DNA of 64,000 bases, taken from NCBI GenBank assembly GCA_047637875.1, contig JBLJBH010000038.1, forward strand, positions 1,969-65,968. The letters are read 5' to 3'. A program made the position numbers and the translations under genes. This document shows, one piece after another, positions 2,975 to 62,565 of this stretch (the first letter of the stretch is position 1; every line of letters begins with the position of its first letter). The notes beneath the pieces are model-generated. The model saw only the letters and a list, made by a program, of their open reading frames with translations, made no database searches and was not told the DNA's origin. The DNA is from Patescibacteria group bacterium. GTDB taxonomy: Bacteria; Patescibacteriota; Gracilibacteria; BD1-5; UBA6164.

Positions 2975-3412
<438 letters not shown>

Positions 3413-3440
3413 TTTAATTTTAATTCTTAAGTAAAAATAT

Positions 3441-3713
3441 ATGGCTCACAAGAAAGCTCAATGATCAACGAATAATGGTCGTGATTCCAATGCCAAAAGA
3501 CTCTGAGTGAAAATATTTGGAGGACTTGAAGCTAGAACTGGAAATATTATAATAAGACAAAAAGGAAATAAATTCTGGCCAGGTGAAGGTGTTTCACAAG
3601 GAAATGATTTTACTTTATATGCAAATAGAGACTGAATAGTTTCATTTCAAGAAAAAAGAAGAGTAAGATTTGATGGAAGAGTTTATAGAGATACTTATGT
3701 TTCAGTAAAATAA
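3441..3713 (+). CDS. rpmA: 50S ribosomal protein L27
   Basis: [28 protein letters not shown]...[16 protein letters not shown]. 90 aa. Confidence 0.92.
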
Positions 3714-3747
3714 TAAAAAAATCAAGCTTTAGCTTGATTTTTTTATT
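3714..3747 (+). terminator. rho-independent terminator after rpmA
   Basis: ATCAAGCT-TT-AGCTTGAT hairpin followed by a T-run. Confidence 0.8.
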
Positions 3748-3789
3748 ACATGATATAATATAACTTCTTATTTTGATAATATTATTTTT

Positions 3790-3984
3790 ATGAATACTAC
3801 TAAATTTTCTCATTGGAGAGATGAATTAAAAAAGAAGCCACAGGCAGAACCAGTTATTCTTGATGGAAATACTGGAAAGATTTTATCTGAAAAACAAATT
3901 AATGATGAAAAAATTGCATCTCTTCGTGCAGCATGAGCATCTGATTTTGAAACTATATTTAGGGAAATATTTCGTCATAGATAG
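3790..3984 (+). CDS. hypothetical small protein (64 aa)
   Basis: Open frame ATG 3790 to TAG 3982-3984 with one in-frame TGA. No recognisable motif. The stop lies inside a hairpin (ATATTTCGTC..GACGAAATAT). Confidence 0.4.
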
Positions 3985-5814
3985 ACGAAATATTATGCCA
4001 TTATAGCTCAGTTGGTAGAGCGTTCCCATGGTAAGGGAGAGGTCACGGGTTCAATTCCCGTTAATGGCACCATTTATGTTAAAAAAAAAATCTAATCCCT
4101 CGTTAAGCTCTAATATAACAGACTTACGAGGGGTTATTTTTATGTTCAAAAACAGAATTTCATTAATTTTTCTCTTTTGAACATAAGAAGCCTTTTTATA
4201 GATAGCAGAGGCATTTCTTAGTAAATCAGTGATAACTTCATATTTAAATAAAATATCATTATTTTTTTGATTTACATTGTTTACTTCTGAATTTAAATCA
4301 TTTAAAACTTTTTCTATTTTCTTTTTTTCTTCTTGATAAATCGTTTCTTCATTTTCATCTCTCATTTTTCAAAGATTATTTTTAATAAAATCTTTTAATT
4401 TGTTTTCCATTTTTCAAATTTGTATATTTAACAACCTTTTTTGCTCTTTTATATCAAAATCCCCCCTATCAATTCTTTCTTTGATAAGGATTAACAAATT
4501 TCAATAATCTTCCTCTGTTATTTTTATTTTTTTCAGTAATTTTAAGATTTCTTTTTCTATTTCTTCGTATGTAATACTTAATTTTACTTGATTACAAGCA
4601 TATTTTATTTGATGTGGTTGAACTATATCTCAATAATCCAAATTATTATTTCCTGTTTGTTGTTTTAATTCTTTAAGTTTAGGAACAAATCTTTTTTCGA
4701 AATTAGGTAAAGTACAATTAAAATTATACTTTCCATCTTCTGTAATAAGCATTTCATTATGTATCGCCATTATATCATCAATATGTGGTTTTACTTTATT
4801 TTGTGTTCTTACCAATTTTCATTCTCAAACTCCTCATATTTGATATATAAGTTGAGTAAATTCATCTTCTGTAATAAGAGGTTCATAATAATCATTTTTT
4901 TCTCTTAAATCTACTTCCTGTTTTCAATAGACAAAAACTCAATAATAAAAAGAGTCTCTCCAAACTTGATAAAGTTTCGTATCCATAGCTTTTCACTCTC
5001 TTCATTTATCATTTTTAAATTCCCTTTTAAATCAATTATCATTTAAATATTCGGCAATTCTTTCATCACTTTCATTTTTTAATTTCATCATAAAAGCTTC
5101 TCTCATAAGAGGAAAATTAACAGGATGTGGCATATGATATCCTGTTTCCTCATCTATATAATACCCCATTTTATAAATTCAAACTGCTTTTCACTTTGCG
5201 TGAGCAGAATAACTTCATCTTGCACTATCTTCACTTAACTTATCTGAATATTGTTTTGAGAATACAAACCACATTCATAGCATCATTTTTCCACTTGCAT
5301 TATTTTCAAAATGGAAATTTGTATATTTTAAATCAACTTTTCATTCATCTACCAAATTGATAATCTCTCATCATTCAACCATATTTCTTGCTTGTCTATC
5401 TGGTGAATATGATAAAATTCATTTAATTTTTCAGGTTTTAATAAGTGAAATAAGTTTTAACCATTTTTTTCTTATTCCTGGTGTTTTTCAAGACTTTTGT
5501 TCTTCTATGATAAATAAATTTTGAGTTTTTTCTCTTAAAACTTCATCTTCGATAGTTTCAGTACTGGTTTTCTTTTTTAGTCAAAGAAATTCGTTTTCTT
5601 TAAAATCAAAATGAGAAAAAGTTGAGTTTTTTTCCATTAATTTGATATTATTAACCAAAGCAAAATTATAACAAACTCTAATTTGGTCTTCGATTGATTG
5701 CGTTTGTTTTCCTGATGCCTCATCTGTTGATTTTCTGACATAAATTACATATTCTATTTCTTCTATATTTTCTATTTTTTTGATTTTAGTTCTCGATGTT
5801 TTTGATATAACCAT
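3883..5814 (-). CDS. large serine recombinase (integrase of the element)
   Basis: N-terminus YVRKSTDEASGKQTQSIEDQ (catalytic Ser motif), SPDRQARN, then a recombinase and coiled-coil region. Recognisable body is 4054-5814 (587 aa), with many in-frame TGA. Under code 25 the frame reads through TGA at 4051-4053 and across the tRNA to TAA 3883-3885. This 56-codon tail is probably an integration artefact. Confidence 0.8.
3997..4072 (+). tRNA. tRNA-Thr (anticodon GGU), CCA encoded
   Basis: Hand-folded cloverleaf. Acceptor GCCATTA/TAATGGC, D stem GCTC/GAGC, anticodon stem TTCCC/GGGAG with loop ATGGTAA, T arm ACGGG-TTCAATT-CCCGT, discriminator A plus CCA. 76 nt. Confidence 0.9.
4051..4077. repeat. 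attL: left copy of the direct repeat (core 4053-4068 AATTCCCGTTAATGGC)
   Basis: 16/16 identical to 20566-20581. Identity is about 22/27 over 4051-4077 versus 20564-20590. Covers the T-arm and acceptor 3' strand of tRNA-Thr. Confidence 0.65.
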
Positions 5815-22350: not shown

Positions 22351-22521
22351 ATAATTTGTTTAAAAAATATTTTTTTAAATATAATTTTATTTACTAAAAA
22401 TGCAATGTTTTTTCTTTTGACTTTATAAATTTATATTTATAATAAGCTCTTATTTTTTATCTATAATAATATGTCAGAACAATTTTCTTGATACGAAACT
22501 GAAGCTGCACAATCAGCTTTT

Positions 22522-23034
22522 TTGGAACTTTCAAAAGAAGATAGAGATTTTTTGATACATTATAAATATCACCTAGAAGCAAATAAAATGCAAGTAGATA
22601 GAATTTTAAATATAGATCATCCTGTTGCTTCTTTATTGCATAACTGGGTAAATTTAAATGCGGAAAATAAAAAATGGTATTTAAAAAATATAAATAAAAT
22701 AAAACTTGTTTCAGAAGGAATAGAATTATTTTGAGATGTATATGATTTGGAAGATATTCAACCTATAAAAGATATATTTCAAGATGGAAGATGGTCAAGA
22801 GAACAAGCAGAAAATTATGCAAAAAATATTGGGAAAGAAATTCCTGATTGGAGTAGGCTTTTATCTTTTTTTCCAGAAAATGTATGGATTACTTTTTTTG
22901 TTTATGTTATGGGGATGAATAGAACTTATTTATGAAATTCTACTCAAAGTATTATAGCAAGCAAAAATATTTTATCTTTTGGAAGTGTTCTTTCTAGCAA
23001 TGGAAAATTGAGATTGGTTCGTATTAAAAATTAA
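22522..23034 (+). CDS. hypothetical protein (about 170 aa, start uncertain)
   Basis: Track ORFs 22522-22734 and 22747-22935 join through TGA. The frame is open from 22429 with no in-frame ATG. TTG 22522 is taken as the start. Confidence 0.5.
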
Positions 23035-23045
23035 TATAAAAAAGT

Positions 23046-23570
23046 ATGTCAAAAATTTTATGAAAATGAGTTTTTCCTGATCATGGGAAAGTAAATCCTG
23101 AAAATTATAAGTTAGATTCGGCAAGTAAAAAAAAGATAATAAAACTCTCAACAGCTATGTCAATTGGAGAAAGAGAAAGTTTTGAAGTATATAAATTTGA
23201 AGCTCAAATACTTCGTAGAATTGAAGAAATTATAGAAAGATGAGTAAATTCTTATGTTGATTATAAAGAATCACTTGGTGAGGAAATTCACCTTAATAGA
23301 AATTTATATGAGGAAGCTTCTATAATATCTGATGAAATGTCTAAAGAAGTGAATGTTATAGTAAAAACCTTAGATGTAGTAGAGTGAATTGCTTGAGTAG
23401 AAATCGATGATAATACTAATAAAATCCAGATAATTGAAACTTATTTTGAAGATTATAGTGATAAAGTAGCTAATTTATTGATACAAAATGAAGTGAAACT
23501 AGAACAAAAAGCAAAATCAGCAAAAAGATTTAGAAGAAGACAAAATGCTAAAAAGAAAAAAAGAAGTTAG
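23046..23570 (+). CDS. hypothetical protein (174 aa, basic C-terminus)
   Basis: Continuous frame with TGA=Gly. Confidence 0.55.
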
Positions 23571-23688
23571 GAATGACTTCTTTATTTTTGACTTTAAAAT
23601 TAAAAGTATATAATGAGAGTATATTTTAAGTAACTCATCTCAACCTTCTCGCATAAACCTTAAGGGAAGGAGAAATAAGGAAAGTTTT

Positions 23689-23845
23689 GTAACCCACCCC
23701 TAACCCCTCCCTTAAGCCTAATGGAGGGGAAAAAGTAACCCCTCCTAATCTCCCCTTAATTCTAATGGAAGGAGAAATAAGGAGAATATGAATTAAATCC
23801 TTCCCTTAGGCTTAAGGGAAGGTGGTCGAAGACCGGATGGGTTAC
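23689..23845. repeat. GC-rich structured repeat, copy A (composite)
   Basis: Outer pairing GTAACCCA (23689-23696) with TGGGTTAC (23838-23845). Internal hairpins CCCCTCC..GGAGGGG and CCTTCCCTTA-GGCT-TAAGGGAAGG. Shares blocks with 62456-62565. A partial unit lies at 23655-23688. Confidence 0.6.
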
Positions 23846-23913
23846 GAAAAAGAGTTTGCTTTATAAAATTAAGTTTTTATAATTATGACATTATTTAATA
23901 AAAATATATCAAT

Positions 23914-24768
23914 ATGTGATATTGAAAAACAATTACAACTTATTTAGTTGATGGTAGTTCAACATGAATTAAAACAGTTGAGTTATCAAACTGGGTATGA
24001 AAAGCAATAATTATACCTAGGCAAAAACTAAAAGAAGCAAAAGATAGAAATGAAGTTTTACAACCTGCAATTTATTTTCTTTTTTGAATTAATGATGATT
24101 GAAATTGATTAGCATATATTTGAGAGGCTGAGAATCTTATAAATAGAATTTGAAACCATGATACAAATAAAGATTTCTGGGATGTGGTTATAGGATTTAT
24201 TTCAAAAGATAATAATTTAACTAAGGCTGATGTTAAATATTTAGAAGCAAAAGCCATTGAGAGAGCTAAAAAAGTAAATAGATTTGTTTTACAAAATTGA
24301 GTTGAGCCAATTCCTAATAATCTACCTGAATATCAATTGGCTTCAATGAATGAATTTTTAGATAATATAGATTTATTAATTTCTGCAATTTGATATCCTA
24401 TTATTAAAGAAATAAAAGAAAATTTCTCAAAAAATAATATTTATTTCTGTAAATGACCTAATGCTGATGCATTTTGATTTTATACGGATGAATGATTTTT
24501 GGTACAAAAATGATCAAAGGTTAGAAAACAGACAACTTTAACTGCATGAAGTTGGATTAATTGAATACAGAAAAAATTATTAGAAGAAAAAATATTAGAA
24601 TATTTATCTGATGAAGAATTAATTTTCTCTGTAGATTATTTATTTAATAGTCCTAGTGCTTCAGCATGATTAATTTTATGAAGAAGAGCTAATTGATGGT
24701 TGGAGTGGAAAAATAAAGAATGAAAAAGTTTAGATGAAATTGAGAGAAGAAATTTAAAAGATATCTAA
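23914..24768 (+). CDS. GIY-YIG nuclease-family protein with a DUF4357-like C-terminus
   Basis: 284 aa. N-terminus TYLVDGSSTGIKTVELSNWVGKAIIIPR, then IYFLFG..GLAYIGEAENLINRIGNH (GIY-YIG core). Confidence 0.7.
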
Positions 24769-62104: not shown

Positions 62105-62458
62105 ATGATTATGAATATTACGAATTTAGATAAAAAAGAGTTAGTAGCTCTTAATAAAAAATTAAAGCTTTTAAGTTCCTTAAAGAAATCTTTATGAAAC
62201 AGAGGTACTAAAGAATATCACAAGATAGTTGATGGAAAAGATATTTATAAAGTAGAATATTTTGATTTTGGTGCTGATGCTTTAAATTATGTAGAGGATA
62301 AAGCTCTTGAAAGTTTTAAAAAATTATTTTGATTGAATCTTCAATTAACACAAATTGAATTTACAAAAAATCAAAATTTACAAGGATGAATGAGAGTTTT
62401 TTATAACGATAATATGTTTGATTTAAGTTATAACAGATTTCAAAATTTATTAAAATAA
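62105..62458 (+). CDS. atpH: short ATP synthase delta (OSCP)-like subunit
   Basis: 117 aa. C-terminus LQGGMRVFYNDNMFDLSYNRFQNLL resembles the delta C-terminus. Called from position between atpF and atpA. About 60 aa shorter than usual. Confidence 0.6.
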
Positions 62459-62565
62459 CCCACCCTATCCCTCCCTTAATTCTAATGGAGGGGAAAATAA
62501 GGAAAAGATTTTCGTAATTGCTCCCCTTAGATTTAAGGGAAGCTGTCTGAAGGACTGATGGGTTA
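62456..62565. repeat. GC-rich structured repeat, copy B (atpH-atpA spacer)
   Basis: Outer pairing TAACCCA (62456-62462, starting on the atpH stop codon) with TGGGTTA (62559-62565). Hairpins CCCTCC..GGAGGG and GCTCCCCTTA..TAAGGGAAGC. Shares blocks with 23689-23845. Confidence 0.6.

Follow-up and report, generated by a model that had tools for sequence, protein, structure and literature searches.

What is the GC-rich, multi-hairpin block that interrupts an AT-rich spacer in the stretch of gracilibacterial DNA shown above, and how did it come to lie there? The stretch as a whole (the window; 64,000 nt, C38:1969-65968 of the genome that we call G000) carries this block, copy A, upstream of gyrA and a second copy, copy B, at the junction of atpH and atpA. 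A preliminary description, made from the letters of the DNA alone, had left the choice between a repeat resembling MITEs (miniature transposable elements with inverted repeats) or repetitive extragenic palindromes (REPs) and a structured RNA. The evidence presented here argues that the block is probably a selfish repeat of nested palindromes, a miniature without open reading frame (ORF) of cassettes in which hairpin ends enclose a DUF559 gene.

The first step towards an answer is the number of copies. Where only a pair had been recognised before, a census of G000 by sensitive blastn and profile (nhmmer) searches found 40 sites with a total of 3.5 kb, namely 13 of the family to which copies A and B belong (family 1; 7 of full length) and 27 of sister families, which bears out a repeat of the MITE/REP-like kind. 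GC-rich perfect hairpins were called 153 times in the genome, overlapping stem/loop variants each being counted; 89 of these calls have an all-pyrimidine 5' arm and belong to the elements. All families have the same layout: a 5' terminal repeat, an optional mini-hairpin, hairpin 1, an AT-rich spacer (often TAATAAGGAAA), hairpin 2, a GAA mini-hairpin and a 3' terminal repeat. Besides full copies there are halves, 'minimal' ones with a single hairpin, and composites that are nested or in tandem. The copies in G000 are not recent, since the identity among them has a median of 72-77% and a maximum of 89%.

G000 (1.26 Mb in 43 contigs, GC about 24%) has hardly any ORFs under table 11, and its genes become dense once TGA is read as a sense codon. 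Since TGA sits on conserved glycines of AtpA, the genetic code of G000 is code 25, the Gracilibacteria/Absconditabacteria type, and table 4 (Mollicutes) was dropped on the same grounds; TGA read as glycine also restores the GIY-YIG motif. Under this code, 1133 genes were called by a simple ORF caller, at a coding density of 91%. Inside these ORFs lie 13-14 of the 40 sites, always in frame and free of TAA or TAG. Full copies are found in UvrC (32 extra residues), ClpB and Tex, half copies in MutL, CysS, a GalE-like epimerase, a TilS-like PP-loop protein and a subunit of pyruvate:ferredoxin oxidoreductase, and further copies in the leader peptides of three pilin-like proteins. Pfam confirms the host proteins, and every in-frame insert falls between domain matches; that of ClpB is in a length-variable loop between TSNxGS and FRPEFLNRID. 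The in-frame copies of family 1 use one reading frame and encode the recurrent peptide (T/I)HPNLPLSLRE. TGA codons lie within five of the in-frame copies (those of UvrC, with GAC-TGA-TGG, and of ClpB, with GAC-TGA-AAG, are examples), and these five are open only because TGA is glycine in G000. Outside genes, full copies occupy very tight gaps at operon junctions, where 4-60 nt on either side separate them from neighbouring genes that are intact (groES-groEL, rpsA-rpsB, atpH-atpA, argS-pilT, ruvB-methyltransferase and csoR-copA), and their orientation relative to the flanking genes is mixed, about 8 sense versus 5 antisense, without bias. A split-gene, bypass or splicing reading of these 'intergenic' copies was rejected, the flanking ORFs being distinct, intact genes.

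Two observations touch the placement of single copies. On the minus strand at C27:112305-115397, the ORF of a CopA-type P-type ATPase has no stop before a family-1 element and runs on into an ORF of about 260 residues, giving an apparent fusion of 1030 amino acids. The largest paralogue family of G000 comprises 22 type-IV-pilin-like proteins (C32:41921-43339, C29:2915-6130, C16:7880-9424), and several of them have a half-element within the cleavable leader, just before the (G/A)FTLVEL motif; placement in the leader peptide also occurs in an alphaproteobacterial metagenome-assembled genome (MAG; UBA3637; L124, L129, L159, L174; NPSYTFPYALREGQTGRSMVEMLGVL) and in L148.

That the copies were inserted is seen at sites which relatives (numbered from G001 onwards) have in common with G000. 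In ClpB, G000 has 258 nt where ten relatives, eight of them congeners, have 189 nt, and the extra 69 nt are the element. UvrC of G000 is longer by exactly 96 nt than that of seven congeners. Between atpH and atpA the element is absent from G009, G007, G004 and G005, in which an AT spacer of about 30 nt directly follows the stop; around the atpH stop, G000 reads AAAA[TA]ACCC...GGGT[TA]ATT versus ...AAAATAA... in G009 and G007. Between groES and groEL, six congeners lack the element and G009 has a decayed remnant. The hairpin core CCCTT-N4-8-AAGGG is counted 43 times in G000, 30 times in G003, 10 times in G002, 60 times in G013 and 19 times in G017, and 1-8 times in each of the other 21 relatives; reversed-pattern controls in the same AT-rich genomes give 0-5. 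Across 401 genomes of the class, counts per genome range from 0 to 60 within the window's own family, and several other families are also far above the control. The element copies are lineage-specific insertions and behave as selfish DNA. In a four-locus tree G003 is the sister of G000 (support 1.0, about 80% nucleotide identity). Its own elements form a family 4 (CCCTCACCCC..., hairpins with CCCCTCTCC), which is found at sites shared with G000, atpH-atpA among them. In their 5' parts, copies A and B stand midway between family 1 and this family 4, which favours descent with divergence.

The copies vary in a way that preserves their pairing. In the family-1 alignment 95.5% of the cells are paired, and six pairs have changed on both sides, a number reached by none of 500 shuffles; controls in which the partners were slid by 1-3 columns are paired at 29-59%. 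The compensatory change noticed before at the base of the last hairpin (columns 116/139: GC 5, CG 1, UA 1, GU 1) is real, because the pairing counts far exceed shuffles and slid controls. The strongest co-variation of family 1 is found in the GAA mini-hairpin (helix 4), with both sides changed in three of its four pairs. The imperfect terminal inverted repeats were likewise borne out, and family 1 always ends TAACCC...GGGTTA. Folded as single-stranded DNA (ssDNA), copy A has z = -6.1 (0 of 200 dinucleotide shuffles as good) and copy B z = -3.3 (1 of 200). For family 2, RNAalifold pairs hairpin 1 with hairpin 2 into one long hairpin in preference to folding each of them locally; between these alternative folds the sequences cannot decide.

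The terminal repeats are related to the hairpins by a second rule. In the family-2 alignment the 3' terminal repeat co-varies with hairpin 2 (CTCCC->GAGGG, CCCCC->GGGGG, CCTCC->GGAGG) and the 5' repeat is constant; from this co-variation, the terminal repeat is the mirror image of the hairpin's purine arm. Scored by the purine-motif triplet rules (G.G-C, A.A-T and T.A-T, antiparallel to the purine arm), the elements' own modules reach 97.5%, segments swapped between families 76% and the parallel register 25-78%. Matches are 8/9 and 9/10 in family 1, 8/8 in types a, b and c of family 2 and 7/7 in family 3. The order pyrimidine arm, loop, purine arm, linker and purine terminal repeat, which characterises PIT and TMECO repeats, holds in families 1-4, and by their sequence the elements share the architecture class of the PIT/BoxC/TMECO repeats.

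TMECO repeats have the consensus CCCTCNCCC-N3-6-GGGNGAGGG-N3(TTA or CCG)-GGGNGAGGG and occur in 3610 copies with a patchy distribution over 262 proteobacterial genomes (Holder et al. 2015, PMC4666352, where older studies by Hoyne, Maher and Bergler are cited). TMECO oligonucleotides form an intrastrand triplex in vitro according to circular dichroism and nuclear magnetic resonance, which was not seen in vivo; inverted pairs are common, a strand bias is absent, and function and origin were left unexplained. The repeats were tied to local genomic instability, no mobility genes were found near them, and neither an endonuclease nor an ORF is mentioned (PMC4666352). The elements described here resemble them in having a C-rich arm, a loop, a G-rich arm, a short linker (often TTA) and a second G-rich segment that obeys the purine-motif rules, and also in their frequent inverted pairs, lack of strand bias, patchiness across strains and species and lack of a nearby transposase. 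They differ in that their stems contain A/T (CCTTCCCTTA), unlike those of TMECO, and in the linker, which is TTA in families 3 and 4 and a GAA mini-hairpin of 11-13 nt in families 1 and 2, as opposed to 3 nt in TMECO. TMECO were reported to be always intergenic, whereas a third of the copies here are in frame inside genes, and neither a link to DUF559 nor a full-length, ORF-bearing form has been described for TMECO (PMC4666352). The published consensus has no match in G000; E. coli K-12, the positive control, has one, in the ycjD-fabI spacer.

The link to DUF559 comes from a search across phyla. The exact 19-base 5' module of family 1 (AACCCATCC-N2-5-CCTTCCCTTA) was scanned for in one genome per GTDB species and found in at least 118 stretches from many phyla. 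The following holds among the matches listed. They include Bacteroidota (Saprospiraceae, Balneola, Ignavibacteria, Bacteroidales), Melainabacteria, Alpha-, Gamma- and Deltaproteobacteria, Clostridia, Calditrichaceae, several groups of the candidate phyla radiation (CPR) and one Bathyarchaeota MAG; in 55 of 135 the 3' terminus matches as well, and the commonest length is 111-112 nt. These cross-phylum copies have the same architecture, including the GAA mini-hairpin, and five of them lie in prepilin leader peptides. When all ORFs at the loci were clustered, DUF559 (PF04480) was the sole family that recurred beside the module, at 8-9 loci in several phyla, with a median distance of 37 nt and Pfam E values down to 1e-40. 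At two Bacteroidota loci (L213, L172) everything forms a single unit, TTAACCCATCCCC-GG-[hairpin]-...ATG DUF559 TAA...-[hairpin]-GGGGGATGGGTTAA. Its termini are the ones seen in copies A and B, and the nuclease gene takes the place that the spacer has in the miniatures.

The same association is found in G000 and its relatives. The only DUF559 gene of G000 (C35:82803-83150) immediately follows tRNA-Ser(GGA), and the TAA that ends it doubles as the first triplet of a family-2 half-element, with a full element coming next. The probability that a random point in G000 falls 10 nt or less from an element-site edge is about 6e-4. The protein aligns to PDB 3hrl and has kept the core DF.C...KLI.E.DG..H. 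Pyrimidine/purine hairpins bracket 18 of 20 DUF559 loci in relatives, and in several host proteins of these relatives the DUF559 unit lies in frame, joined by hairpin-encoded linkers (...SPLPKGEG on one side, PLPLGEVRGG... on the other; Table 1). The unit in RecG of G012 reads GCCCTCACCC-TAA-[CCCTCTCCC AAA GGGAGAGGG]-GATAATA-ATG...-[CCTCTCCC TTT GGGAGAGG]-TTA-GGTGAGGGC; its internal ATG is at Shine-Dalgarno distance from the purine arm of hairpin 1, and its ends are those of the ORF-less copies of G003. Family-4 termini with DUF559 inside, which match the same ORF-less copies, are present in G012, G007, G003 and G013. In E. coli K-12, ycjD, itself a DUF559 gene, ends in a pyrimidine/purine hairpin, and a canonical TMECO (0 expected by chance) lies 170 nt downstream, after a duplicated fragment of the ycjD 3' end, in the spacer adjoining fabI. 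DUF559 was grouped with Vsr and a group I intron homing endonuclease in a survey of the PD-(D/E)XK superfamily (PMC3424549). In the searchable literature that mentions DUF559, a hairpin-ended DUF559 unit is apparently not described, and DUF559 never appears in a title or abstract.

Some DUF559 loci have peculiarities of their own. The RecG unit of G007 (L217, about 1300-1900) is flanked on both sides by a direct host duplication of about 28 nt (aaaaaataaatcaaaa[a/g]attcaaactt, so that KINQKIQT is read twice), a possible sign of repair or of a long target duplication. The 3' end of the tRNA-Ser(GGA) next to the DUF559 gene of G000, GGTTCGAATCCCATCCCTTCCGCCA (C35:83182-83288; L230 1891-1978), resembles the 5' terminal repeats (AATCCCTCC, AACCCATCC...CCTTCCC); these could be derived from a tRNA or could serve in targeting tRNA 3' ends. 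In L226 (G011; 1203-2348), arrays of CCTCCCC hairpins with a strict 55-nt period lie on both sides of a DUF559 gene, with at least nine units on one side, and in L177 (a MAG of Ignavibacterium album; 3336-4058) a tandem array of family-1-type units with a period of 163 nt adjoins a DUF559 gene.

These units suggest a likely route to the miniatures. The copies of about 100 nt would descend from DUF559 units that lost their ORF, and the ends would work as single-stranded hairpins or triplexes. The one DUF559 nuclease that G000 has, or others that came and went, would act on the hairpin- and triplex-prone ends or on empty sites, and this would start copying by repair, as in homing, or excision and reinsertion; the miniatures would thus be moved in trans. 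The structure-preserving changes would then reflect selection on ssDNA or cruciform ends recognised by DUF559 and not the function of a free-standing RNA. A mobilisation of the elements by DUF559 is what we infer from their sequences and positions.

Several points weigh against this proposal. Both cleavage of the ends by DUF559 and the mobilisation are predictions. A DUF559 gene is the neighbour of only about 7% of the cross-phylum module matches listed. G004, G005 and G007 carry DUF559 and have few or almost no elements; because presence of the gene does not predict expansion, DUF559 could be a passenger that prefers the same sites. A consistent target duplication is not seen: the flanks of family 2 are AT-rich without a consistent TA, and the sites in ClpB and UvrC are not clean, their flanks being AT-rich or diverged. 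Three sites are occupied in both G000 and G003, by different families, which requires either putative hot spots or a presumed later replacement or homogenisation of ancestral insertions within each genome. Finally, the copies in G000 are old and give no sign of current activity.

The one competitor to which we would still give a small chance is that the repeats are structural DNA or RNA elements of the PIT/TMECO kind, useful or neutral to the host, with DUF559 as an unrelated passenger. At operon junctions, their hairpins and triplex-prone ends would affect mRNA stability, translation, replication or recombination, and they would spread by illegitimate recombination or gene conversion, without an enzyme dedicated to them. 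The intergenic copies do lie at tight junctions of highly expressed operons (atpH-atpA, groES-groEL, rpsA-rpsB), and the purine arms and spacer look like Shine-Dalgarno sequences (AAGGAGG, ATAAGGA), one arm being identical to the anti-Shine-Dalgarno tail of 16S rRNA. The association of TMECO with genomic instability in the absence of mobility genes (PMC4666352), the congeners that have DUF559 without expansion and the age of the copies fit as well. However, most congeners do without the element at the same junctions and have no compensating feature there, and the orientation of the copies is unbiased. The same termini bracket DUF559 in distant phyla, and DUF559 and the ends move as one in-frame block into unrelated genes. 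According to the account in Holder et al., an earlier study cited there found neither promoter nor terminator activity of PIT motifs (PMC4666352). A role of the elements here as intrinsic terminator or promoter was also rejected, with one weak antisense terminator-like site and no excess over shuffles.

It is very improbable that the block is a functional structured RNA, whether small RNA or cis-regulatory leader, in which the fold is what is conserved. The strong predicted folding and the compensatory changes would be expected of such an RNA, and copy A as well as copy B is in sense orientation to the gene downstream, but there are 40 copies in mixed orientation and of patchy number, many of which, about a third, are open in frame and presumably translated inside coding sequence, and the element is absent at orthologous sites of congeners. 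Moreover, the element, a near-palindrome with profile matches on both strands, folds as well on one strand as on the other. Rfam 15 at its gathering threshold yields only a tRNA in the window, and below threshold only generic hairpins of miRNA precursors at least 50 bits under their cut-offs. The dedicated RNA considered in the preliminary description is thus not supported.

Hardly any credit is left for a classical MITE of the IS630/Tc1-mariner type with a TA target, or for a REP or REPIN (a REP doublet) moved by a REP-associated tyrosine transposase (RAYT): terminal inverted repeats, TA at both ends of family 1 and a doublet-of-palindromes layout like that of REPINs and bacterial interspersed mosaic elements are in its favour, but the cross-phylum termini are conserved beside DUF559 and not beside a transposase, and no such enzyme was found. 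The DDE_3 domain of IS630 (PF13358) is absent from G000, G003, G013 and 22 relatives and present in only 1 of the 26 genomes (G020, which is not element-rich). The RAYT/Y1 family (PF01797) gave a single sub-threshold match in G000 (E = 0.006, 16.7 bits); this weak Y1_Tnp-like match at C17:23551-23757 (L001) contains five TGA codons, lies 2 kb from a family-1 copy and is probably due to chance. All-against-all clustering of the 1133 ORFs of G000 found no multi-copy family resembling transposases, the largest paralogue families being pilin-like proteins, PilT/PilB ATPases, ABC ATPases and genes of integrative islands. As for the earlier IS630/mariner claim, a TA target fits one clean family-1 empty site, at the atpH stop, where the sequence is consistent with a TA duplication, and the transposon origin is not supported.

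Among systems known from elsewhere, the palindromic elements of Rickettsia (RPEs) also come close to the repeats of G000. They too are palindromic, measure about 100-150 bp and fall into several families in any one genome, they lie in frame in unrelated housekeeping genes, to which they add a conserved peptide compatible with function, and a cognate transposase is not known for them either (PMC10969869). RPEs belong to another phylum and have another sequence; the likeness is one of description. The elements here are set apart by their cross-phylum termini, the candidate partner nuclease, the full-length form and a read-through that in part depends on TGA as glycine. A precedent for a selfish, homing-type role is I-Bth0305I, a Vsr-like (EDxHD) homing endonuclease of the same clade as DUF559; it resides in a phage group I intron that is spliced out as RNA, whereas the unit here has neither intron nor intein, ends in DNA hairpins and is translated through (PMC3424549). 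REPs and REPINs with RAYT are also many-copy doublets of short GC-rich palindromes that form a long hairpin, and have a single-copy partner gene flanked by repeats, just as elements follow the DUF559 gene in G000. Their partner is a Y1 HUH transposase versus a PD-(D/E)XK (Vsr-like) nuclease here, and REPs are extragenic, whereas the elements of G000 also lie in frame inside genes. In yeast mitochondria, mobile GC clusters are short GC-rich palindromes that spread in a very AT-rich genome, also within coding regions. Translational-bypass elements derived from these clusters are skipped by ribosomes; they belong to another domain of life and their sequence is unrelated. The in-frame copies here, unlike bypass elements, are open in frame and presumably translated.

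Within the window, copy A is a tandem composite at 23630-23845, in which two 5' halves, the first degenerate and the second intact, precede a full 111-nt unit (Table 1), so that the tandem expansion suspected earlier holds. The GC-rich block of the preliminary description is real (40-45% GC versus 15-26% in the flanks), with a corrected limit: the array begins at 23630 and not at 23655. Its closing repeat (GTAACCCA from 23689, TGGGTTAC up to 23845), the CCCCTCC...GGAGGGG hairpin (at about 23704-23729) and the perfect hairpin listed in Table 1 were all found again, as was the repeated sub-block, three times in copy A (23705, 23749, 23799) and once in copy B (62469). In unit 0, GTAACTCATC replaces the terminal repeat and is followed by a decayed hairpin (CCTTCTCGCA...CCTTAAGGGAAGG) and by AGAAATAAGGAAAG. 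Unit 1 consists of the terminal repeat GTAACCCACCCC, TAA and hairpin 1 (CCCCTCCCTTAAGCCTAATGGAGGGG, with a single C/T mismatch). Unit 2 contains, in this order, the terminal repeat GTAACCCCTCC, an imperfect hairpin 1, a spacer with ATAAGGAG, hairpin 2, the GAA mini-hairpin and the terminal repeat GGATGGGTTAC. The 5' arm of hairpin 2 is all pyrimidine and its 3' arm all purine, and the 3' terminal repeat matches this purine arm in the antiparallel purine motif at 9 of 10 positions. In copy B, the first TAA is the stop codon of atpH.

Table 1. Positions of copies A and B and their parts in the window, and DUF559 units in frame in host proteins of relatives
Feature	Position	Strand	Genome	Remarks
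Copy A unit 0, degenerate 5' half-module	23630..23688	+	G000	sequence reading; weak nhmmer match to family-1 profile positions 1-46 (C38:25599-25647)
Copy A unit 1, 5' half-module	23689..23734	+	G000	nhmmer E = 2.3e-5, profile positions 1-42
Copy A unit 2, full 111-nt element	23735..23845	+	G000	nhmmer E = 1.8e-19, entire family-1 profile; aligned with 6 other full copies
Hairpin 2 of copy A	23799..23822	+	G000	perfect 10-bp stem, CCTTCCCTTA-GGCT-TAAGGGAAGG
GAA mini-hairpin	23824..23834	+	G000	GGTC-GAA-GACC; joins hairpin 2 to 3' terminal repeat
3' terminal repeat of copy A	23835..23845	+	G000	GGATGGGTTAC; complementary to 5' terminal repeat
Copy B, single full 110-nt family-1 element	62456..62565	+	G000	atpH-atpA operon junction; nhmmer E = 2e-28
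In-frame DUF559 unit, RecG			G003, G007, G012	between Walker A motif and motif Ia
In-frame DUF559 unit, RecQ			G003, G013	
In-frame DUF559 unit, RarA			G024	
In-frame DUF559 unit, TsaD			G017	
In-frame DUF559 unit, ELP3-like enzyme			G017, G023	

For copy A there is no orthologous site for comparison, because its neighbourhood is specific to G000. Window positions 22471-24768, upstream of gyrA, form an accessory segment; it comprises a GIY-YIG/DUF4357 gene (23914-24768) and two small ORFs for which Pfam gives no match. G003 and G001 have a different gene at this position, and upstream of gyrA in six congeners a different gene and no GC-rich element was found. The GIY-YIG/DUF4357 gene was considered as mobiliser of the elements and rejected, since it is single-copy and does not recur near other copies. 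Elsewhere in G000, tandem repeats of the heptamer (CTTGTGG)n occur at C15:1-71, C29:6373-6428, C32:14061-14128 and C34:10156-10221, and of the decamer (GCTTGTTGGA)n at C16:9690-9765. They lie 100-300 nt upstream of several pilin-like paralogues, beside elements of families 2 and 3 and at contig ends, and may serve as phase-variable promoter repeats, or else be what breaks the assembly. Two kilobase-scale stretches with about 50% GC (C16:36127-38073, C23:17112-18550) stand out from the 24% GC of the genome and may be recent horizontal acquisitions or mis-binned sequence.

How far can the proposal be extended? Copies in frame in essential genes, a spread across phyla, a DUF559 partner and a match to PIT, TMECO and BoxC were all absent from the preliminary description. 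Taken together, they raise the possibility, which we put forward only tentatively, that Vsr-like DUF559 and triplex-prone double-hairpin ends constitute a cross-phylum class of selfish DNA that has escaped recognition, the miniatures of which would include the elements found here and BoxC, PIT and TMECO. Such a class would need no promoter, intron or intein, because it is inserted in frame and translated as an extra domain of the host protein. In bacteria with code 25, reading TGA as glycine removes one of the three stops, so more frames are readable through GC-rich elements, and this might have helped to colonise essential genes.

If the link to DUF559 holds, it would provide an origin and a candidate enzyme for the BoxC, PIT and TMECO repeats, which have stayed unexplained for about 30 years although hundreds of genomes have been catalogued for them, and a possible role for DUF559, a very common domain of unknown function. 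The in-frame copies show that the streamlined, host-dependent bacteria of the CPR tolerate selfish DNA even inside essential proteins such as UvrC, ClpB, CysS and RecG. Extra loops or domains of this kind have to be annotated as something other than inventions of the host, which also bears on maps of tolerance used in protein engineering. Finally, the copies that are open only by virtue of TGA suggest a concrete link between the reassignment of a stop codon and the tolerance of in-frame mobile DNA.

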